Positions 8,807 through 20,024 of a DNA stretch of 64,000 nt are shown piece after piece. This stretch comes from Escherichia phage AV124: the sequence record OR352954; one strand, given 5' to 3'. The translations under genes and the position numbers were made by a program. Under the pieces are notes generated by a model. That model searched no databases. It was not told the origin of the DNA and saw nothing but the letters and a program-made list of their open reading frames with translations. The number at the start of each line of letters is the position of its first letter. Position 1 is the first letter of the stretch.

Positions 8807-9043
8807 ATGAACACCCTAAACACCTACACGAAAGTCTTTCACTTCTGGTGGCAAAATCTGGGAAGGCTCGATGTCGGCTCAAAAGATGAGGCACTCAGAG
8901 GTTGGCGAGACTGTATGCTTAAGCAGCACGAAATCAATGACAAAGGGAGTATCCTTCGGGGAACAGATGCTTATTGCTTGGGGTGGAACGCCGCTGTCGA
9001 GTTTATTCTTGGGGAGAATTACTATGGCTTACAGAACATTTGA
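8807..9043 (+). CDS. hypothetical protein
   Basis: ORF starting 2 nt after upstream stop. Confidence 0.45.
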   Translation: MNTLNTYTKVFHFWWQNLGRLDVGSKDEALRGWRDCMLKQHEINDKGSILRGTDAYCLGWNAAVEFILGENYYGLQNI

Positions 9044-9227
9044 TGAATGGAACGCCCGTGGGAGGATCGTCAAAAAGGGCGAGAAAGCTATGGGTCACCT
9101 TCTTGACGGAACTGCTCTTTTTGGGAAGGAACAGACCAAAGGGAAAAAGAGTCGTGACTGGGGAGAGACTGACCTGGGTGATGCGCCAGACTCCTGGTAC
9201 ATGGGTGGGCCTGAGGATTATTATTAA
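9024..9227 (+). CDS. hypothetical protein
   Basis: Track ORF 8871..9227 trimmed to internal ATG near upstream stop. Confidence 0.35.
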   Translation: MAYRTFDEWNARGRIVKKGEKAMGHLLDGTALFGKEQTKGKKSRDWGETDLGDAPDSWYMGGPEDYY

Positions 9228-9511
9228 TGAAACATATCCTACTGAAGAAGTGCAAACCTATAACCTACTGCAAATTCTGCAAAGCCATTGGTATACGCAG
9301 GCGTTGCACAGTTATGACGAAATACCAACCGCCGTGGGGACTGCGTGACTGGTACAAGCATTACGCCTGTGATGAACACAAACACCTGATTGAAGACCCC
9401 GACCCACGGGGAATCATGGAAGCTGCTGCAAAGAACCCTGCCCCACCACAAAAAGTTGCACGTGATGAGCACCACACAGAAGCTGACTATCAAACCTGGA
9501 TGAGGCTATAA
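9227..9511 (+). CDS. hypothetical Cys-containing protein
   Basis: ORF in array; CKFCK and CDEHKH motifs. Confidence 0.45.
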   Translation: MKHILLKKCKPITYCKFCKAIGIRRRCTVMTKYQPPWGLRDWYKHYACDEHKHLIEDPDPRGIMEAAAKNPAPPQKVARDEHHTEADYQTWMRL

Positions 9512-9940
9512 ATGATAAAACATTGCCATAATTGCAGTGCCTGTTGTGAAGTTATCGCCATAGATAACATCACGCACGAAGAATTTCACGAAAAGGTCAG
9601 GACCGGAAGAGTATCGGCTATCCACGGGGAGATGATGAAACCAATCTCCAGGGATGAGGCCTACAAACGGAATCCTCTTGTTGTTACAGGTCGTGAAGAG
9701 GTTGGTAAAGGAACAAAACACTTCACCAGCTACTTTACCTGCACAAAGCTGAAAGACAACAAGTGCTCAATATACGGGGATCGCCCGTACATGTGCAGCG
9801 GATATCCGTTCTATGACCGAGTGCCTGTGGACACACAATCACATGCTTCTCTGTGCAAGACACAGCTTCGCAGGAAGGACACCCCGTACTCCTCAACATG
9901 CACGTATGTCCCAAACCTGATCGCAGTCAAGAATATCTGA
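9512..9940 (+). CDS. YkgJ-like putative zinc/iron-chelating protein
   Basis: CHNCSACC near N-terminus and GDRPYMCSGYPF resemble the CxxCxxCC / RPxxC signature of the YkgJ family. Confidence 0.4.
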   Translation: MIKHCHNCSACCEVIAIDNITHEEFHEKVRTGRVSAIHGEMMKPISRDEAYKRNPLVVTGREEVGKGTKHFTSYFTCTKLKDNKCSIYGDRPYMCSGYPFYDRVPVDTQSHASLCKTQLRRKDTPYSSTCTYVPNLIAVKNI

Positions 9941-9950
9941 CCCACACAAC

Positions 9951-9981
9951 AAGGGAGCCTGAAGAGGCTCCTTTTCTTTTA
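9951..9981 (+). terminator. rho-independent terminator
   Basis: GGAGCCT-GAAG-AGGCTCC stem-loop followed by TTTTCTTTT, directly after last plus-strand gene. Confidence 0.6.
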
Positions 9982-9993
9982 TCTAAATTTTCC

Positions 9994-10022
9994 TTGACGT
10001 AAACAGTCAGCCCTGATATAGT
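9994..10022 (+). promoter_or_regulatory. sigma70-like promoter (TTGACG-N17-TATAGT) reading into ORF-poor region
   Basis: Hexamers with 17 nt spacing just past the terminator. Confidence 0.35.
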
Positions 10023-10834
10023 CATTATACGCCAAATCTCCTGAAGCGGGAGGATACAATCACCACCCCTGCGTGAAAGGTTGCACATCCCATTAACACA
10101 CATAATATGAAGGGTCTCCCCGATATGTCGATAAAACACCATTTCATAAACACATTGCCGTAACGTGTCGATGCCATAAACATTACGGTGCGAAGCACTT
10201 TGCCAAAGGCAAAAACCTCCGGTGCTATAAATATATCGCCTTGGGCGATTAGCCAGAGGCTAACCCGTACACGGGTAAATATATCGCGTAAACAGGCCCC
10301 TGTTTTCCCCGTATAACCACCCCTTCCCCCCGTGGGGAAATCAAAACATACCCCCTGCCGAAAATATCACTTGCCGAAAAATATCATGGCTTGGTCCTTG
10401 GGTAAAAAATATTGTATTCGCACCATCTGCGGTGTTAGACGGACAGCTCCGGGCGTCAACTATCTTTACGGATCTTTACAAAATATCATGGGCAAGGTCG
10501 ATCCGGTTCCCGGTTCCTCGGGGCCTCTTCAGGCATGATAGTTACTTGCCGAAACTAATAATAATTGGGTGTGTCAGATAGCAAGCTTATGGTTTGCCAG
10601 CTTAGAGCACGATTTGCTATTGACTTGTTTATATTTATATGAATTACACCATTTAACATAAAACACGTTATACGCACTGACCAACAACGCATAGCAGACT
10701 AATAATGCCCCAATGTTACCAGTGTGACGCATAGGACAGCCGCTTCAGGTCATTACATGGTGTGACTGTTACTGTGGTGATAGTTTCATATGTGATTATT
10801 CATGTTTTAGGGTTGTTTTGTGAATGAGACGACG

Positions 10835-10889
10835 AATGAGAATCATTATTATTTCGATTTCGAATTCAATTTCGAAATGAGAATCATTC
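10835..10889. repeat. two copies of palindrome AATGAGAATCATT flanking TTCGA-rich palindromic core
   Basis: AATGAGAATCATT at 10835-10847 and 10877-10889; related copies at 19711-19723 and 19744-19758. Confidence 0.6.
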
Positions 10890-11179
10890 CGCAAATATAA
10901 ATATTTTGTAAATTTATAAATAAAAGCTTGACGAGGGAAGAGAATCGTGTTTAGCAATACATACTCTTTGAGCATCATTATCATTTGCGACTAATTCCCA
11001 TAAACCCTTGCTACGCAAGGGATTGATAGATATTTTCGATAATAAAAACACTTGACACTTCAGATAAAATCATGCTCAAAAACAAGCCTTTTCTCATAAG
11101 ATACGATCATCATTCTAATGGTTTGTCAACCATTAAACACGAATTAATTTGATTAAACTGCTAATTGTTTACAGGGTTT

Positions 11180-11530
11180 ACTATCATCAGCGACACAATA
11201 ACACAATGCCCTTCGGGTTGTTTTCGCCACGGAAAACAATGTCCAGATTGACCAAAGGGGTTTTGTGAATCCCCTTTATCTGGACACAATAACACTAGGG
11301 CGATCAACGATAGTTGATCGGTGTTATCGTGGCGATGTGATAAAGTTTCATTGCTAATCATTACAGATGTAATGATAATATACTGTGATAATTTCGTCCT
11401 TGATCGTAGCGTCTACGAGCCACGATAACGCGAACGAGAATGCGATTTGTTCGCATTTGAGTTACCCTAGTGTTATTGTGTCGCTCGCTCCGCTCGCGCC
11501 ACTCCCCACGATTCGCGAACGAGAAATTTT
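11180..11530. repeat. nested inverted- and direct-repeat cluster (origin- or operator-like)
   Basis: GGACACAATAACACTAGGG (11283) vs reverse complement at 11464; GATCAAC-GATA-GTTGATC; GTTATCGTGG vs CCACGATAAC; CGAACGAGAA twice; several GC hairpins. Confidence 0.55.
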
Positions 11531-12142
11531 ATTGACAGAAAATGATTTCTATGCTCATAAAAAGCCAGTTCACACAATGAGTTAGATGAGGAAAGTTATC
11601 ATTATAGTGATTTATGCTCATATTCACTTCCAGTGCATAGAAATTCATGATTTATTCAGTTAATAACATGCGTTATTAATTAGGTGGGGTTGTGGGGTGA
11701 AAAGCCAGGACCGACACACAATTAAACGCAATATAAAGCGTTTTGAGCGTGGTTATCGGTTACCCTCATCATGGTATGTCTTGTGTTAGATCTCAATTAT
11801 GCACTTTTTTGCATAGCGGCGGGGCCGTGGTGTGGGTTGTTTATGGTGTGGATCTGCAAAGAGAAAAGCCAGGTAAAAACCTGGCCTTTGTGTGATTGTC
11901 TTATGACTGGCTAGCCATATTGTTTTAGATAGTTTACAGCGGAAATTATTGCTTGTGCTCGGCTGTACTCTTCGCCGTTCACACGATAGCGCCGCGCGCC
12001 TTTATGGCACTGGGTGATCATAACCTGGATTATTCCATCCATAACATAGAATGCTTTACTTACGAATAAAATCATCTGATACTTTGCAACCGTGATCCGT
12101 GGCGTATGTTATCGCGTCATCAATTTTTAACATGTCACAACC

Positions 12143-12355
12143 TCATTCATTGATTAGTTTAAATTCCGCTTCAGGGTGATAAAGATCAGCCATATAGCGC
12201 ATTTTGTAATAGAAAGATACTTCCACAATGTGAGGCGCTTCGATTTCTATTTGTGTGATGAGAACGCTACCCGGCTTAAATCCTGGGGCGATGTCCGGTA
12301 ATTCGATAATCATTCCGCCTTTTAAATCTTTCGCTTTTACAGTTCCCATGATCAT
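12143..12355 (-). CDS. hypothetical protein
   Basis: First ORF of leftward block; ATGA overlap with upstream gene. Confidence 0.45.
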   Translation of the reverse strand: MIMGTVKAKDLKGGMIIELPDIAPGFKPGSVLITQIEIEAPHIVEVSFYYKMRYMADLYHPEAEFKLINE

Positions 12356-12585
12356 TAGCCTTTTTTACGTTTCATTACTTTGATCGCTTTTATGCCTTTT
12401 TGTTCGAAAAATTCCGGGCTTCGCAATTGTGCGGCACTGCTACGGCTTTTTACCTTAGTAGACAATACACCATAATAGCGCCCGTCATCATACTGACCAA
12501 TAAAATAAAAATCGTTTACGCCATATTTTTCATCCCCTGCTTTCTGGATGATTTCGGATAACTTGTCAATACTAATATTAATCAT
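12355..12585 (-). CDS. hypothetical protein
   Basis: ORF in co-directional minus-strand array. Confidence 0.45.
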   Translation of the reverse strand: MINISIDKLSEIIQKAGDEKYGVNDFYFIGQYDDGRYYGVLSTKVKSRSSAAQLRSPEFFEQKGIKAIKVMKRKKG

Positions 12586-12633
12586 AATTGCTTTACCTCA
12601 AAGGATAGCGGGGCGGCTAGCGCCCCGGTTTGA

Positions 12634-12963
12634 TTATTTGTTAAGCTCTTTATATTCAGCGATCCAGCGGGTAAAAATCTCATACTGTTTTTGTGCTGCT
12701 TTCGCTGTTTTGTGAGAGATAACAGTTATATACCAGCAATTTCCTAAAACATAACCGGATGAATGATAAACCCACGGATATTTCGGATCGATCTCTTTCA
12801 GTTCTTTTTGACGTTCTGGGGACTCGCTCCAGACGTGAGAGACAAAATCAACGGCAGTATAACGGGGAACTTCAAGCGGGACACGCTGACCGAAAGCGTC
12901 AAACTTAAAATTGTGCGACTCTAAATGCTTGTCTAAAAAGGTGAAAAATTCTGATTTTGTCAT
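12634..12963 (-). CDS. hypothetical protein
   Basis: ORF in minus-strand array. Confidence 0.45.
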   Translation of the reverse strand: MTKSEFFTFLDKHLESHNFKFDAFGQRVPLEVPRYTAVDFVSHVWSESPERQKELKEIDPKYPWVYHSSGYVLGNCWYITVISHKTAKAAQKQYEIFTRWIAEYKELNK

Positions 12964-12969
12964 TTCCGT

Positions 12970-13137
12970 TTACCTCGTCAAGTTGTTTTCGTTTGTTTGC
13001 CCTACGAGATAAATAATAATATAAGCGGGGATCGCTGTAAATAGCTCTTTACGTATCTTTACATTACTGTCGTTGTTGAGAGTAATTCTCATTACCGGAA
13101 TAGCGGGCACCTCCGGTGGCTTTCCTCCGGTATCCAT
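12970..13137 (-). CDS. hypothetical small protein (start uncertain)
   Basis: Track ORF 12970..13242 trimmed to internal ATG; weak SD; hydrophobic C-terminus. Confidence 0.25.
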   Translation of the reverse strand: MDTGGKPPEVPAIPVMRITLNNDSNVKIRKELFTAIPAYIIIYLVGQTNENNLTR

Positions 13138-13210
13138 CGTTGCCGCTTCAAAAAAGAATAGCAAAAACCAGGACCGAAAGCAAGCCCTAGAATTGTAAAG
13201 ATTTTGCCTA

Positions 13211-13678
13211 TCATACCAGGCCGGATCGCTTCGCCTTTGCAATGTCTGAATATAATTTCCTGAAGTATGCCGGGCCTCGCTCGTTTACTCTCACATATTC
13301 ATCACGCGCCGCCAACTGGTGATCGTCGGGTAATAACCCATGATAACCACTGCTAACAACGGCAATCCGCTTTTTGTTGCAGTCATAGTAAACATATGAA
13401 CCATCGGCTAGATAAATTGTGCAGTTCTGCCGGATGTAGGGTATCAAATACGCGTTGCCCTGGTGCCGGATTTTGTAAAGCGCCATTTGTCCATTGTAGA
13501 TCCGGCGGACGTGATAAGGGTCATTGATTGCCTGGTGAATGTTTTCCTTCCAGGCCTGGCGAGCGTTGCCAACATTACGGATCAGCGCTTCCACCTCTGG
13601 GATCACGACGTTAGCACGGGCGGCGGCTTTTGCCTGGTCTGATAATTCATCGTAATAAAACATTCGTACACTAATCAT
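13211..13678 (-). CDS. hypothetical protein
   Basis: ORF in minus-strand array. Confidence 0.45.
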   Translation of the reverse strand: MISVRMFYYDELSDQAKAAARANVVIPEVEALIRNVGNARQAWKENIHQAINDPYHVRRIYNGQMALYKIRHQGNAYLIPYIRQNCTIYLADGSYVYYDCNKKRIAVVSSGYHGLLPDDHQLAARDEYVRVNERGPAYFRKLYSDIAKAKRSGLV

Positions 13679-13873
13679 TTTTTAATCCCCATGAAAGGAA
13701 AGCAAGCCAGATCGGCGGGGCGCAAGTGGTTAACACGTCGCCAGCCTTTTGGCGTTTCAACAAAAACGCGGTTTTCAATCCAGTGATAAATTTTACCAGA
13801 TCGCATATTGAGAAAACGTATCATTTGCGTTTATCCGTAAAAGTTGCCCCGGATCGCCGGGGCCTGGTGTACA

Positions 13874-14644
13874 TTATGCCACAATGGCGGGACGGTTTAC
13901 AACGGTTGTTTTTACGTCCTGATAGGTATCGTGTTTTTTAACGGTAGCCTTAAACTTAACAACCGCGCCAACCGGGCCGAACTCTTTTGATCCGATGTAT
14001 GTTACTAGGTCATCGCCCTGGCGGACTTTGATAATATAGTATGATGATTGATTCCATTCATCAATTTTGAGATAAGAGAAAACGATCTCACCCTCAAAAA
14101 CCAGGCGATCGCCAATGTTACCGATCCAATTGCTTTTTAAATCCTCGGCTTTACGCTCGGCGCGTTTCTGGTCACGGGCTGCAATGTAACCATGATCAAG
14201 AGCATAACCCAAACACGCCGCGCTTAGTGCTTCCATTACCGGGCCGTTATCTGGCTTGTTTGCCATATCAGCAAAAAATAAAACATAGGATTCTTTAACA
14301 TCGGCAAACGTTTTACCGCAATGCTTGCCAAAAGGAAAGCGCCCCGCTTCGATTTCTTCGATCCGGGCGGTATCGACGATCGACAATTTACCGCGACGTT
14401 GCCCCAGCTCAAAATCTGCGTAGCCTGCAAAAACTTGTTCAAAGTTTTCTGTGTTGGCGATCCGCGCGGTTACTCGATCAAAATATTCCTTTGCTTTAGT
14501 TTCTGCTTTTTGGGGATCGGTTGAAAGATTGCAGATGTAAGAATCTGCAAAAACGCCACCGCCAAAGTTACGGCGGCGCAATGTATACATTGCATTCAGC
14601 TTGCCGGAGTCGATGTAATAGGTAACGGTGATTTTAGTAGTCAT
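13874..14644 (-). CDS. hypothetical protein (FPFGKHCGKT motif)
   Basis: 256-aa ORF; hairpin CCCCGG-ATCG-CCGGGG downstream of stop. Confidence 0.5.
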   Translation of the reverse strand: MTTKITVTYYIDSGKLNAMYTLRRRNFGGGVFADSYICNLSTDPQKAETKAKEYFDRVTARIANTENFEQVFAGYADFELGQRRGKLSIVDTARIEEIEAGRFPFGKHCGKTFADVKESYVLFFADMANKPDNGPVMEALSAACLGYALDHGYIAARDQKRAERKAEDLKSNWIGNIGDRLVFEGEIVFSYLKIDEWNQSSYYIIKVRQGDDLVTYIGSKEFGPVGAVVKFKATVKKHDTYQDVKTTVVNRPAIVA

Positions 14645-14751
14645 TCTGTTTTACCTCGATTTGTGGGCCGTCGCATCATTGCCGCCCTATACATTAAATA
14701 TAATAAAAGTCGCTCACGTTTGCAAGCGACTTTTTAGATTAATTTTCTCAA

Positions 14752-15075
14752 TTAGTTAGCACGGAAAACATCGTTTACAATAGCAGTTGTAAACATCCAG
14801 ACCAGATCCGGGGTGGTTATCGGCAGGCTGTCAGCCTGTTTTATTGTTACTCCGCTTCTTTCAAGAGTGTAGGCGATAAAATGACGGTTTTCAAGTTTTC
14901 CACTATGTGATTGAATAGATTTTTCAGTACGGATCAGGACGGTTAAACGGTCCGCTTGTTCGCTGTCATTCTCATGACAAAACACTAACATGGTTTTTTC
15001 TCCCTGGCGATTAAAGTCACAATTAACATTATCGTTAACATTTTCCAGAAAGAAAAATTTGTTTGCCTTTTCCAT
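14752..15075 (-). CDS. hypothetical protein
   Basis: ORF in minus-strand array. Confidence 0.45.
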   Translation of the reverse strand: MEKANKFFFLENVNDNVNCDFNRQGEKTMLVFCHENDSEQADRLTVLIRTEKSIQSHSGKLENRHFIAYTLERSGVTIKQADSLPITTPDLVWMFTTAIVNDVFRAN

Positions 15076-15146
15076 ACTATTTTACCTTTTTGTTAGTGGG
15101 CCAATCTTGCCCGGTCCAAGTAATATAGCCTAACCGGGCCGGGTGA

Positions 15147-15443
15147 TCAATGATTATTTTCTTTTTCGGCGTACATCTGGATCAAGCTGGCTGCGTCGAT
15201 ATTGTCAACAAAAAACGAGGATACCGCCACCGCCGGATCACCGTCTACTGGTTCACCATCCGGCATAGGTTCGACTTCTGGCGATGGTATGCACGCCGGA
15301 TTAATCCAGCGCCCATAGCGCTGATAGTCAACGGCGACGATCTCGCAAGTCAATTGATCATCATAGCTTTCTACTACATAATCGCCACACTGTTTTAAGG
15401 CTAGCGCACTATAAAAACACACACCCGCGAATACTTCGAACAT
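15147..15443 (-). CDS. hypothetical acidic protein
   Basis: ORF in minus-strand array. Confidence 0.45.
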   Translation of the reverse strand: MFEVFAGVCFYSALALKQCGDYVVESYDDQLTCEIVAVDYQRYGRWINPACIPSPEVEPMPDGEPVDGDPAVAVSSFFVDNIDAASLIQMYAEKENNH

Positions 15444-15453
15444 GTTAACCGCC

Positions 15454-15696
15454 TTATTTTTTCAGAGTAATGATCGGGCGCTTGTCGCCCTCTTTGACGC
15501 CAGGATCTAACGTATCGCAGATCCCCACTTGCTCACCCTTTTTCAAAGTGTAGCTGTTTTCGTACACCTCGCAAGCTTGTTCGTCATCAAAAACTTTCTT
15601 TACAGTCCAATCACATTGTAATGACATTGAACTAACAGAAATGTGACAAGCTAATAAAATAAATCCGAACATGGTAGCCGCCTTAATGGGGCGCAA
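15454..15696 (-). CDS. small lipoprotein (predicted lipobox LLAC)
   Basis: N-terminus MRPIKAATMFGFILLAC: basic n-region, hydrophobic core, L-L-A-C lipobox; mature part about 63 aa. Confidence 0.5.
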   Translation of the reverse strand: MRPIKAATMFGFILLACHISVSSMSLQCDWTVKKVFDDEQACEVYENSYTLKKGEQVGICDTLDPGVKEGDKRPIITLKK

Positions 15697-15710
15697 GGCC
15701 CCGCTATTGA

Positions 15711-16034
15711 TTATTTGTTGATCTGGTTTGTCTGATTATAGATCCCATATTGAACACGGGACACGGTAACAGATTGAGGGAGTAAGCAACGAACACGATC
15801 CGCGCGGTTGTCATATTTTTTAATATGCGCCGGAGTATTGTTGCGGGTAAACTTAACACGCAAACGTAATTTATTTGGATCGCGGTCATCGATGCCGGTT
15901 ACCACACCGAAAGCGATTTGGCCATAGTTATGATAAACCATTTTACCCAGAAATTTTGATTCAAGATCGGCGATGTTAGATTTTACGTTTTGCATGTTGT
16001 TTACCTTTTTCAGAGTGGCGGTGAATTCCGCCAC
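15711..16034 (-). CDS. hypothetical protein
   Basis: ORF with SD-like AAAAAGG before ATG. Confidence 0.45.
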   Translation of the reverse strand: MAEFTATLKKVNNMQNVKSNIADLESKFLGKMVYHNYGQIAFGVVTGIDDRDPNKLRLRVKFTRNNTPAHIKKYDNRADRVRCLLPQSVTVSRVQYGIYNQTNQINK

Positions 16035-16295
16035 TGATTAAAGGATAGCATAACGCCGACAGGATGCAACAAATATTTTTAGAATTGTTGAGAACTGTTC
16101 TCATATGCAGTGATATGCATAGAAAATCGCTGTTATGCAATTAGTTTCAACTGGTTACTAAATTTGTGGCGTTTTGAGCGTGGCGCGGCTATCCGATACC
16201 CTCTAAAACGCCCTCAAATCGATTCTAAGCGCTTCAATCTGTAGCCCTGGTAAGTGCATTGCTACGCTGAGATCTCGCTAAATTCACTTTTTTGC

Positions 16296-16324
16296 ATAAA
16301 AAAGCCGGGGATAATTCCCCGGCC
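16296..16324 (-). terminator. rho-independent terminator (minus strand)
   Basis: GCCGGGG-AATTAT-CCCCGGC followed by TTTTTTAT on minus strand just after stop of 16328..16543. Confidence 0.6.
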
Positions 16325-16327
16325 TGG

Positions 16328-16543
16328 TTACTCACCTGTTACGGCGTATCGCTGCAAATTACGTTTACGATCGGCAAGGCGTTTATTTAACTTCGGGTCG
16401 TACTGGTCCGGCGACCATTGAACCGCGATCCGTTCCGGCTTATGCCGTTTATTGTTACGCTCTCGCCGCTCGTTAGTCTCACCAAAAGCAAGGCGATCGC
16501 GCTGGCTTGTCATCTTCTCAAAGTTGCGGCTTTTTGCTGTCAT
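16328..16543 (-). CDS. hypothetical highly basic small protein
   Basis: 71 aa rich in R/K/E (RRERNNKRHKPER); possible nucleic-acid binder. Confidence 0.45.
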   Translation of the reverse strand: MTAKSRNFEKMTSQRDRLAFGETNERRERNNKRHKPERIAVQWSPDQYDPKLNKRLADRKRNLQRYAVTGE

Positions 16544-16880
16544 GTTTTGATCCTCTGTGGTTGTATGTTTCCGCTCGCCATTCCGCGATCTGTTTTTTGC
16601 GATACTCGATCAGCTCTTCGATGTAGTCGAAAGATCCCTCTTTATGTACCAGGACCACGCCGCCCCGGTGTTTAATCTCACAAATCAGGCCGCTACCCTC
16701 CAAATCATTTAACGGCCCGGATCGCCTGGTGTGGTACTCCTCCCCCTGGAAGCAATATTCTATATAATGAAACATTGTTTTAACCCTGTACCAGTAGTAA
16801 AACCACTTCAGAACACGCCAGATCCTGACGTGAATTTTTGCATAATAACAAAATATGAGTAGAATCAAAAATTCTTTCAT
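16518..16880 (-). CDS. hypothetical protein
   Basis: Track ORF 16518..16952 trimmed to ATG adjacent to upstream stop. Confidence 0.35.
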   Translation of the reverse strand: MKEFLILLIFCYYAKIHVRIWRVLKWFYYWYRVKTMFHYIEYCFQGEEYHTRRSGPLNDLEGSGLICEIKHRGGVVLVHKEGSFDYIEELIEYRKKQIAEWRAETYNHRGSKHDSKKPQL

Positions 16881-16881
16881 A

Positions 16882-17277
16882 TTACGCCGCGCTGTTTTTA
16901 AATGGCTTATCCCATGATCCGAACTGTAGATCGATATAGTGACCAACATCAAAATAATCTGTCATCACGTCGCTATTGTTATAATTATCAGTGTCTAGCG
17001 CTTCAATGATTTTTTCAAGCGTTGCGGTAAACTCTTTATCACTCGAATAAGTATGAGCGTTATAATGGTTAACACTGATATATGTAAAGCCGTCCGGGTA
17101 TCCTTCTTTAACTGATTTATGATCCATTTTAGACACAAGATCAAACGGCGCGGATCGGATAGTGCAAACAATAGTTGAATAGTGACGGATCGCAAATGTT
17201 GCTTTCCAACCTTTGGGCAATACAGCTTTTACCGCTTCGACAATTTTCGCTTTCTTCTCTTTATTCATGTAGGCCAT
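16882..17277 (-). CDS. hypothetical protein
   Basis: ORF with SD AAAAGGTAAAC before ATG. Confidence 0.45.
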   Translation of the reverse strand: MAYMNKEKKAKIVEAVKAVLPKGWKATFAIRHYSTIVCTIRSAPFDLVSKMDHKSVKEGYPDGFTYISVNHYNAHTYSSDKEFTATLEKIIEALDTDNYNNSDVMTDYFDVGHYIDLQFGSWDKPFKNSAA

Positions 17278-17336
17278 TTTGTTTACCTTTTAGGTTATGC
17301 CGGGGACAATTCCCCGGCTTTAATCAGTATAGCGGT

Positions 17337-17849
17337 TTAAAGAATCTTTGCAACGTCTTTATAAGACCATGCAAAAAGAGAATTTTGCTTACCTGGTGCA
17401 ACGTCCGCCAGACGTCCAGCAAATCGGGCGCGGTTATGGGGGAACTCAAAGACTACCACGCGCCCGGATATCATTTCCACGCGATCACCGTTTTTCAGAA
17501 GTTTAATCCGGTCAATCAGTGCTTTATGCTCTTTTTTGTGTTTAACATGTTGACGACAAGCGGCGCGCCAATTAACGGAGAATTCATCTTGTTGCGTGGA
17601 TCGCTTAAGGAATTTTTCAGGACAATTGTAATAACACGGGCCGCAGGATTCATCCATATCTTTATAAAAAACCATACCATCTTTGCGGGAAAGGATTGTA
17701 ACACGAATGTAAAGACTTTCATCTCTCGCCCTTGCAAGCTGATAAACTTCATTGCCTACAATAGACGTTTCGATCACGCGGTTATCAGTCAGATAATTTT
17801 CAACAAATTTTTTGTTATTAAGATTAGAATAAATGCTAGTCCAGCCCAT
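17337..17849 (-). CDS. hypothetical protein
   Basis: ORF with SD GAGGTAAATAAA before ATG; downstream of consensus promoter. Confidence 0.5.
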   Translation of the reverse strand: MGWTSIYSNLNNKKFVENYLTDNRVIETSIVGNEVYQLARARDESLYIRVTILSRKDGMVFYKDMDESCGPCYYNCPEKFLKRSTQQDEFSVNWRAACRQHVKHKKEHKALIDRIKLLKNGDRVEMISGRVVVFEFPHNRARFAGRLADVAPGKQNSLFAWSYKDVAKIL

Positions 17850-17891
17850 TTTATTTACCTCGTTTAGTGTTTAATTTGTTGGTGCCTGGTA

Positions 17892-17921
17892 ATTATAGGC
17901 CCTTTCCGGGCCTGGTGTCAA
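17892..17921 (-). promoter_or_regulatory. sigma70 consensus promoter TTGACA-N18-TATAAT with hairpin-forming spacer
   Basis: Minus-strand read: TTGACA CCAGGCCCGGAAAGGGCC TATAAT; -35 overlaps stop of upstream gene. Confidence 0.5.
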
Positions 17922-18703
17922 ATGATACGTTCGAATTTATCGAATCTTTTTGCGGATCTGCCGTGAACGTCGATCACGACGTTGGCGCGTTTACCATCGC
18001 ATAAGCCGCAATCTAAGCAGCTAATGTTGTGAGTGGTATTAACGCAAGTGATCTCGCCCTCCAGGCGGCGCATATTGTGAGTTTTCACGCGGAAAGTTTT
18101 ATAACCCTTGCGCCATGCTGTGATCGCTTGTTTTTCCGTATCGGCTGAGATCTGGCAAATGGTAGCGATACGATGATCAAAATTCTTATGGTGGATCTGG
18201 TGAGTGTACCCCGTATTGCCTTGCGTATGGTTGACCATGTTTTGCCATACCTCAAAAGGGACCGCCGCCGGATCGCCGTAGGAACCTAAACGGATATAAC
18301 GCCCCGCAAAATGTACCAGATCGCGAGAATCAAGATCTTTATAATTGCCTTTTTTGTAAGACTTCCAGACTGACAGCGGGGCCTGGTGTAATGTCACATA
18401 ACAAGCGCCGTTTAAGCTGGTACGATGGGGACACATACCGCAAACAGATGAATCAAGTTTTTTAGCGCTCGCTTCCAGTGGGCTAACATCCTCACGCATG
18501 ATCCAGGTTTGAACCATATCGCCAGTCTTATCGTTAGCGGTTGACATTGTAGCAATGACCACGATCGGGGCCTTATCCAGGACTGACGGGCCTTTATATA
18601 ATACATAACCCTTTTTTGCTGTGGATTTTTTACCCGGTACACTATGCACGATCTCGGATTCAGAGTTGACAACCAGACCATTATTAAGTTTAAACGTAGA
18701 CAT
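17918..18703 (-). CDS. hypothetical protein
   Basis: 261-aa ORF; several Cys (CGMCPH, CLDCGLC). Confidence 0.5.
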   Translation of the reverse strand: MSTFKLNNGLVVNSESEIVHSVPGKKSTAKKGYVLYKGPSVLDKAPIVVIATMSTANDKTGDMVQTWIMREDVSPLEASAKKLDSSVCGMCPHRTSLNGACYVTLHQAPLSVWKSYKKGNYKDLDSRDLVHFAGRYIRLGSYGDPAAVPFEVWQNMVNHTQGNTGYTHQIHHKNFDHRIATICQISADTEKQAITAWRKGYKTFRVKTHNMRRLEGEITCVNTTHNISCLDCGLCDGKRANVVIDVHGRSAKRFDKFERII

Positions 18704-18795
18704 TGCTTTTTACCTCGATTTATCGCGGCCCTTGCCGCCTGAGAAAACACTTTAGCAAGGGCGCTAACTGAAAGCAAGCGCCCAGGGTAAAATAT

Positions 18796-18963
18796 TTTAT
18801 TTAGCTAGTGATAAGGTTTTTCCGTGGTTGATCCCAGGGATAACCCATTGCCCGGCGCCATCTTTAACAGGCTGACGTAAACGCGCCGCCGTGGTTACCT
18901 TGCTGTTAACATTACGGGCAAAAGCGCGGGCCTGGTCACGGGTAGTAAAAGAAATATTTTTCA
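18796..18963 (-). CDS. hypothetical small protein (55 aa)
   Basis: ATG after GAAGAGG on minus strand; below track cut-off. Confidence 0.3.
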
Positions 18964-19252
18964 TGTTGTAGCCTCTTCAGTAGATGTAATTTTGTTTTGC
19001 CCTGGATTTTGGAGATCCTCACCTTTCCGGGCCAGATTGAATCCTCATCGCTTGCGCTTTACTCCACGCCCCACTATTTCAACCGGGGGCCTTGGATTCA
19101 CCCCGCCCCGGTGAGATGAATATTAAGTGATAGCGATCCCCGCGTCAATCCCCTGGATGAAAATAAATTAAAAATATTTTTGTTCGTGTGGGCTTGCGCC
19201 CCGGCCTGGTTAGTGTACTATATAAGGACTCCCACAAATAAAGGTAAACGAA

Positions 19253-19818: not shown

Positions 19819-20024
19819 AAAAAATTTTTTCGCGTAAGAAAACAAATACGATCTGGAAATTGAGATCTCGATCGAGAACCGGGCCGAAAAATTTTTTCTA
19901 GAGAGAAAACAATTACGATCTCGATTTTGAAAAACCGATCGAGAACCCGGTTGATACAGAGAAAAATTTTTTGATAGTGAGAGCAAATACGTTTTTGAAA
20001 ACGAAAAGTCGATCGAGAACCCAG
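19819..20024. repeat. three tandem imperfect direct repeats of about 70-75 bp
   Basis: Each unit has AAAAATTTTTT, GAGAAAACAA(T)TACG and CGATCGAGAACC; units start near 19819, 19887, 19962. Confidence 0.7.

Follow-up and report, generated by a model that had tools for sequence, protein, structure and literature searches.

Two intergenic loci in a 64,000-nucleotide (nt) stretch of the genome of Escherichia phage AV124 (OR352954; hereafter the window) share a repeated element. The phage is rV5-like, belongs to the Vequintavirinae and is akin to the KpS8/Mydo/KB57-type Klebsiella myoviruses. Judging from the sequences of related phages, the two loci are paralogous copies of a non-coding cassette of ~215 base pairs (bp) that lies in the early-gene region of rV5-like and phi92-like phages. 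We tentatively propose that the cassette acts at the DNA level as a cis-regulatory element with paired operator-like sites ~17 helical turns apart, and that it also marks mosaic breakpoints; we regard this as possible, somewhat short of probable.

A sequence-only reading of the window had described a two-part module at these loci, made up of the 15-mer GCGTTTTGAGCGTGG, a TATC(G/C)G(A/T)TACCCTC segment and a second word, CACTTTTTTGCATA. The sharing of the words was borne out: within the window, exact matches to GCGTTTTGAGCGTGG occurred at 11738-11752 and 16169-16183 only, those to CACTTTTTTGCATA at 11802-11815 and 16285-16298 only, and the degenerate segment was present as described. The end of the module had been set at 11805, which truncates CACTTTTTTGCATA because this word spans 11802-11815. 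A lone repeated 15-mer is unremarkable, as we estimate that ~2 exact 15-mer repeats are expected per 64 kilobases (kb), and a scan of the window with up to three mismatches gave 3 matches versus 1.3 expected. When the intergenic regions of both loci were aligned locally, the score was 47 versus 18.9±2.5 for shuffled sequences, and both regions had homologues in ~58 phage genomes. The joint similarity of the two intergenic regions is far above chance. Matches to the 15-mer in at least 120 IMG/VR contigs were also considered as homologues; none of those fetched was homologous by blast, and they were set aside as chance matches.

Because the flanking genes run on the minus strand, both loci were read on that strand. 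The similarity spans ~215 nt, from 16298 to 16086 (locus 2) and from 11815 to 11604 (locus 1). The two-part description did not hold, since both words are pieces of this longer unit and the first of them lies at non-homologous positions in the two copies. The block with the 15-mer lies at unit position 64 in locus 1 and at position 116 in locus 2. It is a shifted sub-repeat (shift ~52 nt; score of the match between the loci 31 versus 11.2±2.0 for shuffles), which explains the differing distance between the words, 64 nt at one locus and 116 nt at the other. When the interiors of the loci were compared in register, no significant likeness was found.

The unit belongs to a family. An nhmmer profile built from 16 units, with the locus 2 sequence itself included in the model, detected exactly two full units in the window, at 16298-16086 and 11815-11604. 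By profile search, 33 distinct units were found in Seunavirus and Mydovirus phages and in IMG/VR contigs; the phages with the unit included PVP-SE1, 4MG, GAP31, FENT2, Mydo, KNP2 and BIS47. A further unit (E = 8e-40) was present in Klebsiella phage FBKp34, which belongs to another subfamily, the Stephanstirmvirinae. The 16 full units, from six phages, aligned over 215 nt nearly without gaps, with 42 invariant columns and a mean column identity of 70%. Fuzzy matching of the head word to the window and to the 16-kb loci of five relatives gave 19 copies, all on the gene strand, with two to five per genome. Further, exact matches to the head motif in the full-length IMG/VR contigs of 4MG, PVP-SE1, KNP2 and BIS47 all fell in one early-gene neighbourhood.

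Orthologues of the locus 2 unit (type 2) were 76-97% identical in 48 phage records, and those of the locus 1 unit (type 1) were 87% identical in FENT2 and 72-75% identical in PVP-SE1, 4MG and GAP31. Compared with PVP-SE1, the locus 2 unit showed 76% identity and the surrounding gene-unit-gene block ~73%; by this measure the unit is conserved at least as well as its coding neighbours. Each paralogous type kept its own variant of the head across genera, suggesting that the types are old and were not recently homogenised.

Protein coding can be excluded for the units. No reading frame was open across them, and the shortest of the longest open stretches was 14-21 codons in every frame. A mini open reading frame (ORF) starting at the ATG of TATGCA was rejected on inspection, as it has no ribosome-binding site (RBS) and its stop position differs between units. 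A host origin was likewise rejected; blastn against 5,426 E. coli genomes matched only a 29-nt terminator, described below. Most public records annotate no feature at the unit, and elsewhere there are only hypothetical-protein or misplaced calls. Literature searches on the motif and on transcriptomes of the two subfamilies found nothing relevant, and no description of the unit. The genome papers of rV5, PVP-SE1 and Certrevirus report σ70-type promoters only, along with an unexplained 'non-coding' box in the case of rV5.

The most regular feature of the unit is an 18-bp dyad-symmetric site, TATGCA-N6-TG(C/A)ATA, at both of its ends. The head site (A), which across units takes the form TATGCA-N6-TG(C/A)AT(A/T), and the second site (A') are 177±1 bp apart. 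In the type 2 copy (16086..16298, minus strand; ~213 nt from the head site to just beyond the second site), site A at 16281..16298 is TATGCAAAAAAGTGAATT, an inverted repeat TATGCA-N6-TGAAT that contains CACTTTTTTGCATA, and site A' at 16104..16121 is TATGCATATCACTGCATA, a perfect inverted repeat 177 nt downstream. The type 1 copy (11604..11815, minus strand) is a full cassette at the edge of a ~2-kb ORF-poor stretch. Its site A at 11798..11815, TATGCAAAAAAGTGCATA, is a perfect inverted repeat, and its site A' at 11621..11639, TATGCACTGGAAGTGAATA, has an N7 spacer and lies 176 nt downstream. TATGCA-N6-TGMATA sites formed only these two pairs in the window (16298/16121 and 11815/11639; 177 and 176 bp), and three of the four copies matched the dyad pattern without mismatch. 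Among the 33 units, exact matching found TATGCA again at +177 in 26 and at +176 in two; the remaining five are type 3 copies, in which the second site has GATGCA. In FBKp34 the sites are also 177 bp apart, and A' is TATTCA-N6-TGAATA. TG(C/A)ATA half-sites recur at +159, +169 or +179, and +189, that is, in steps of ~10 bp. At locus 2, a TTGCATA word provides one more TGCATA half-site, 13 nt before A' (16134..16139, minus strand), which on inspection doubles as a -35-like hexamer in TTGCAT-17-CATATC. The commonest form of the site is asymmetric, TATGCA...TGAATA, suggesting selection on sequence rather than on base-pairing.

Between the two sites, the order of elements is GAGATCTC, followed by two sub-repeats AGGGTA..CGCTyAAAACGC, the first of which pairs with GCGTTT to form hairpin B. 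A small palindrome (block D) and TTGCATA then precede the closing site A'. At locus 1, hairpin B is AAACGC-TTTATATT-GCGTTT (11724..11743, minus strand), and a hairpin-like palindrome equivalent to it is present in most units. Block D of locus 1 is TTAATAAC-GCAT-GTTATTAA (11660..11679, not assigned to a strand), and its equivalent at locus 2 lies at ~16141-16161. The 15-mer of locus 1 belongs to sub-repeat S1, GAGGGTAACCGATAACCACGCTCAAAACGC (11738..11767, minus strand), which matches sub-repeat S2 of locus 2 out of register. Despite these rearranged interiors, the total length of the unit is kept and 1-nt insertions and deletions offset each other.

A DNA-level role is favoured because the most conserved motifs are dyads with an asymmetric commonest form, the half-sites are phased at ~10 bp, the length is fixed despite turnover of the interior and a terminator shields the unit from upstream. 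We propose that a putative dimeric or oligomeric DNA-binding factor, encoded by the phage or the host, binds A and A' on the same face of the helix. Site A' overlaps weak internal σ70-like hexamers and precedes the main early promoter by between one and a few helical turns, so that binding would modulate early transcription, most simply through repression or shut-off by looping and less likely through activation. The cassettes could double as points of homologous exchange because they are repeated, which would account for mosaic breakpoints and for gain and loss of units. Mechanistically, the cassette most resembles, by analogy, paired operators that act by looping, such as araO2-araI1 (~210 bp apart), lac O1-O3 and gal OE-OI. 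As in those systems, there are two copies of a dyad-symmetric site at a fixed distance of nearly whole turns, one of them next to or overlapping a promoter, and the interior is variable. The cassette differs from them in that its interior has the extra conserved blocks B and D, and that its cognate protein and looping are putative. The full proposition, in which a putative protein of the phage, or one hijacked from the host, loops the DNA before selected early promoters through TATGCA-N6-TGMATA pairs and so times or shuts off a subset of early genes, with the device conserved in both Vequintavirinae and Stephanstirmvirinae and serving also as the handle by which recombination shuffles early-gene modules, is one that we regard as doubtful.

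In every case the unit had the orientation of the genes, with a terminator or hairpin before it and a σ70 early promoter behind it. At locus 2, the rho-independent terminator of the upstream gene, with a 10-bp stem and a T-run, adjoins site A (16302..16325, minus strand). The product of the small gene just upstream (16328-16543, minus strand) is homologous to that of T7 gene 1.1 (PF08200, E = 2.7e-7). At locus 1, a terminator-like hairpin GCCAGG-TTTTTA-CCTGGC with a T-rich tail (11858..11885, minus strand) lies ~43 nt upstream of site A and downstream of an ORF at 11911-12075; the terminator scan listed the 11868-11885 hairpin on the plus strand only, and the minus-strand reading with the tail TTTTCTCTTT comes from the sequence. 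More generally, a rho-independent terminator, a T-rich hairpin or a ATGAGAAnnnnTCTCAACAA palindrome was found upstream of the units. The palindrome GAGAACAGTTCTC (16090..16102, not assigned to a strand), which separates A' from the promoter at locus 2, is in the same motif class (ATGAGAAnnnnTCTCAACAA) as the palindromes that precede the type 1 and type 3 units of relatives.

Some observations touch these sites. The terminator hairpin and T-run at 16295-16323, GCCGGGGAATTATCCCCGGCTTTTTTATG, matched the E. coli convergent pdeA/nupC terminator exactly (29/29), a match found in 3303 of 5426 complete E. coli genomes; the likeness may reflect host capture or convergence. The A' region of locus 2 (~16091-16110, minus strand) overlaps a LexA-box-like CTG-N10-CAG, CACTGCATATGAGAACAGTT, and the GAGAACAGTTCTC palindrome, both of which are common only to the Mydo-type and PVP-SE1 orthologues. 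ARG boxes, Fur boxes, CRP, IHF, NsrR, MotA boxes, σ54 and boxA were compared by eye, and none fits both in sequence and in spacing.

Downstream of the locus 2 unit, a σ70-type early promoter, TTGCAT-16-TATCCT with TG before the -10 (16042..16069, minus strand), is followed by a hairpin in the 5' untranslated region (5'UTR), an RBS (AAGGT) and an ATG at 15995. Across the units, a promoter of this type was consistently located ~218-258 nt from the head, with sequences up to TTGACA-17-TATTAT in relatives. In 11 units its -10 lay at +240/241 and in 10 others at +251-253, two positions ~one helical turn apart. The paralogy between units runs on into the promoter, a conserved 5'UTR and the RBS. The promoter right behind each unit is of the same type as the σ70 promoters of Certrevirus, PVP-SE1, rV5 and FBKp34 (the Certrevirus σ70+UP early promoter consensus is AAAA-N3-TGTTGAC-N19-TATAAT; PMC7344957). 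The difference is that the 215-bp unit lies upstream, outside any published consensus or annotation; in FBKp34, the authors annotate the equivalent downstream promoter and nothing upstream of it. A shared regulator gene downstream of the units was rejected, as the genes behind different units are unrelated to one another.

The cassette could instead be a stack of plain tandem promoters before early genes, in which the head motif is the -10 and start region of an unusual, conserved σ70 promoter class (TTGCAT-N17-CAtAAt, say, in which the spacer ends in TATG) and no dedicated regulator is involved. At A', a -35-like TTGCAT, in which T, G, A and T are invariant, does lie 17 nt before CA(T/A)A(A/T)N, and on inspection the best case is L187, with CTGCAT-17-CATAAT. 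Weak internal candidates were TTGCAT-17-CAtAAt and TTGAAA-17-nATAnT; in the window, those at A' were TTGCAT-17-CATATC and TTGAAA-16-GATTTT (score 7.9), and across units TTGAAA-16/17-GATACT or TATATT occurred at unit positions 149/172 with scores of 8-12. Type 3 heads have, on inspection, TCAACA-17-CAAAAT, and an internal promoter seems to be needed in the distant phages, whose genes start right after A'. However, the final conserved T of the -10 hexamer is missing in most copies, and site A has no -35 in most units, including those of type 2, where (as at locus 2) the terminator occupies the would-be -35 position. A σ70 consensus scan found no promoter at the head sites or at the words first noticed, and in related genomes the canonical promoter downstream is the only one that the authors annotate. 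Conservation over 215 nt and a fixed spacing of 177 bp also exceed what σ70 recognition needs. Upstream '-35-like' TTGTCA and TAGCAA in the distant class were dismissed on inspection, since they lie in the loops of terminator-like hairpins. We consider tandem promoters of this kind quite unlikely. As to the three roles that the sequence-only reading had offered (a promoter, a structured RNA or a regulatory site), a regulatory site or promoter-associated element fits best, and the structured RNA is the part that found no support.

Several points weigh against a looping DNA-level cassette. The figure of 17 turns on the same helix face is inferred and assumes ~10.4-10.5 bp per turn. The constant length is partly inherited because the units are homologous. 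The promoter of the PVP-SE1 type 2 unit lies at +257, outside the one-turn pattern. No recognisable DNA-binding domain was found in 20 neighbouring ORFs, and searches for transcript and protein-binding data on these phages returned nothing relevant. In the most distant units A' is directly followed by an RBS and ATG; the promoter must thus lie inside the unit there, and part of the unit may act as RNA in these members. Hairpin B was more stable on the gene strand (mean z -1.79) than on the complement (-0.90). Finally, the natural loss of a unit at the type 3 locus, as read from the alignments described below, shows that it is dispensable there.

Two of these points are shared by an RNA-level explanation. 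According to it, the unit is transcribed, either through read-through or because the head site holds or adjoins a promoter, and the transcript acts as a long 5' leader or as a processed non-coding RNA. Local hairpins (B, D and the stem-loop of locus 2) would then control the downstream early gene by acting on stability, processing or translation. The constant co-orientation with genes, the RBS and ATG immediately after A' in distant phages, and the intergenic non-coding RNA expressed by the related phage ΦTE (PMC3475682) are consistent with such a role. The greater stability of hairpin B on the gene strand, which held in 27 of the 33 units, hints at an RNA-level role for that sub-element. Further, the hairpin of block D showed AU<->GC and UA<->AU exchanges between types (pair 141/155, AU in nine and GC in seven units), and the locus 2 unit folded with z = -2.6; the single-sequence z-scores (-2.6, -1.75 and -1.4) are modest.

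The consensus of the 16 units, however, folded with only -0.79 kcal/mol in RNAalifold. Within the type 1 and type 2 orthologue groups, the folds were weak (~-16 kcal/mol per 215 nt), had positive, that is, unfavourable, covariation terms and differed between the types. No fold was common to the whole unit family, and covariation in favour of a consensus fold was not found. A cmscan of 9000-19000 against Rfam at E<=10 gave only sub-threshold chance matches, and a scan of the whole window found no tRNA or tmRNA. The long stem-loop reported at locus 2, GGCGTTTTGAG ... CTCTAAAACGCC (16168..16212, minus strand), which is sub-repeat S2 and contains the 15-mer at 16169-16183, exists in minimum free energy folds of single sequences; it is absent from the RNAalifold consensus of type 2 orthologues and, on inspection, is kept in Mydovirus-type and not in Seunavirus copies, so that it is lineage-specific. 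This stem-loop was rejected as a rho-independent terminator, as the terminator scan reported it on neither strand; its flanks are CTCAAATCG (plus) and ACAAATTTAG (minus). There is no terminator at the end of the unit, whereas at locus 2 a strong one lies directly before it. As RNA, the asymmetric dyads that make up the most conserved motifs would pair poorly, and a total length kept across rearranged interiors would not be expected of an RNA. Structural support in the unit is limited to the small block D hairpin and, weakly, hairpin B; a structured RNA spanning the whole unit is not supported. We consider an RNA-level role of the cassette unlikely. In ΦTE, which is rV5-like, 36-nt repeats in tandem form the pseudo-ToxI locus, a mimic of an antitoxin RNA (PMC3475682). 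Pseudo-ToxI resembles the unit as a non-coding, repeat-containing intergenic element in an rV5-like phage; the unit differs in being non-tandem and without a conserved RNA fold, and the two show no sequence likeness by eye.

The units behave as modules. A type 3 unit was present in all six relatives compared (Mydo, KNP2, BIS47, FENT2, 4MG and GAP31) and not in the window phage, where the empty site (13060..13080, minus strand; window 13066/13071 = Mydo 4374/4577) retains the downstream promoter and 5'UTR. At the junction, a ATGAGAATTACTCTCAACAAC palindrome and eight odd bases precede the retained promoter, the -35 of which is TTTACA instead of TTGACA. Loss of the type 3 unit with the promoter kept suggests that the unit is a discrete module that can be dispensed with locally. 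The nearest Klebsiella relatives (KNP2 and BIS47) cease to be homologous to locus 1 at 11693, inside the cassette, and become so again at 12137, and the segment between resembles Enterobacter phage FENT2. This break is a mosaic junction of the kind described in T4-type phages for promoter-early stem-loop (PeSL) cassettes (Arbiol et al. 2010, PMC2839356; Comeau et al. 2014, PMC4122927).

Such exchange raises the alternative that the unit is a recombination or selfish module with no regulatory role, which would either persist because, like PeSLs, it mediates homologous exchange, or spread in the manner of a miniature mobile element. The presence/absence polymorphism of the type 3 unit fits this explanation, as do the breakpoint inside the locus 1 cassette, where the window copy is nearer to FENT2 than to the closest Klebsiella relatives, the copy number of 2 to 5 and the repeats at the unit ends. 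Those ends repeat one site in direct orientation, each copy being a dyad in its own right, and are not terminal inverted repeats. Traits of miniature inverted-repeat transposable elements were not found: the empty site has no target-site duplication, the excision junction is not clean, and all copies lie in one genomic neighbourhood and in one orientation. Moreover, the paralogous types are ancient and conserved across genera and subfamilies under apparent purifying selection, and invariant columns mixed with free ones argue for a function beyond homology. We regard a purely selfish module as improbable.

Taken by analogy, the nearest described kind to the cassette is nonetheless the T4-type PeSL promoter/terminator cassette. 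Both are repeated intergenic cassettes in a variable early region of a large lytic myovirus, placed before small genes of unknown function, and both are tied to insertions or deletions and to mosaic breakpoints (here, the absence of type 3 and the break at 11693). Both combine a stem-loop terminator and an RBS with an early promoter of the σ70 type that has an AT-rich region upstream; here the promoter part lies only downstream of the unit (16069-16042). In addition, a GC hairpin separates the -35 from the -10 in annotated promoters of FBKp34, a trait also of one PeSL subclass. In contrast, PeSLs are short and compact and number ~50 per genome, whereas the cassette occurs two to five times per genome (twice in the 64-kb window), and its terminator (16325-16302) is parted from the promoter by ~230 bp filled by the unit with its paired dyads. 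PeSLs show no sequence homology to the cassette, and promoter and terminator activity as well as mini-circles have been demonstrated for them; the cassette is known here from sequence.

Hairpins of the PeSL subclass were also seen at other intergenic promoters, where a G+C-rich hairpin stands beside or between the hexamers. Examples lie at 12609-12647 and 15687-15724 of the window and at 1680-1709 and 1988-2016 of L196; an example from FBKp34 is TTGACGCGCCCAAGGAAAGGGCGCATAAT.

Phages of the rV5-like and phi92-like groups are in wide use as therapeutic candidates against Klebsiella, Salmonella, E. coli and Cronobacter, and on the control of their early transcription the published genome papers list σ70-type promoters alone. 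If the DNA-level reading is true, the unit would be the first concrete handle on early control, offering a defined bait for the regulator and a defined element to delete. It also appears to mark points at which early-gene modules are exchanged, which matters for annotation and engineering. Were it only an accessory promoter or leader, it would be a useful but ordinary annotation feature.

A last explanation is that the unit is an element of the replication-origin type, in which a promoter and an unwinding or structured region prime replication, as in T4 oriF/oriG, and the locus 1 copy is part of the neighbouring ORF-poor, repeat-rich region. Locus 1 does border a ~2-kb ORF-poor, AT-rich and repeat-rich stretch with a strongly structured, conserved domain, and the unit is built of phased repeated sites. 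However, the locus 2 and type 3 units are flanked by small early genes of an ordinary kind, and each genome has several copies. The units lack both an AT-rich element for unwinding and a linked initiator gene, and one locus can do without its unit. We consider an origin-type function of the unit highly improbable.

The structured domain itself lies at 11175-11500, ~100 nt beyond the locus 1 cassette, and is an exceptionally stable multi-hairpin region in the ORF-poor stretch (z-scores of the fold: minus strand, -8.2; plus strand, -9.6). It contains nested perfect inverted repeats of 18 nt (11283-11300/11465-11482), 16 nt (11189-11204/11470-11485) and 11 nt (11323-11333/11419-11429), overlaps the mechanically called ORFs 11161-11361 (minus) and 11385-11585 (plus), and is 82% identical to its counterpart in PVP-SE1. 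In eight phages, the core at 11283-11500 had 51 consensus pairs, 99% of them paired, nine with compensatory double changes; the observed level of covariation was reached by 0 of 500 shuffles. There were almost no G·U intermediates, and a DNA hairpin or cruciform, possibly an origin, thus fits as well as RNA. The domain may be a replication origin or a cruciform, or else a non-coding RNA of large size.

The surrounding stretch, ~9975-11900, comprises ~1.9 kb between convergent gene blocks with no ORF longer than 71 amino acids, and its G+C content reaches a minimum of 0.31 near 10850-11150. Short repeats, both direct and inverted, are abundant in it (AATGAGAATCATT, TAAATATATCGC, AAAATATCATGG and GACACAATAACAC, each twice), and parts of it show 66-94% identity to relatives and 72-75% to PVP-SE1, which belongs to another genus. 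This stretch probably corresponds to the 'non-coding' box of the rV5 genome paper. Elsewhere in the window, a repeat of 64-74 nt, AAAAATTTTTTC...ACGATC...GATCGAGAACCCGG, occurs three times in tandem in an AT-rich region at 19820-20024, its copies having diverged (69-100% identity).

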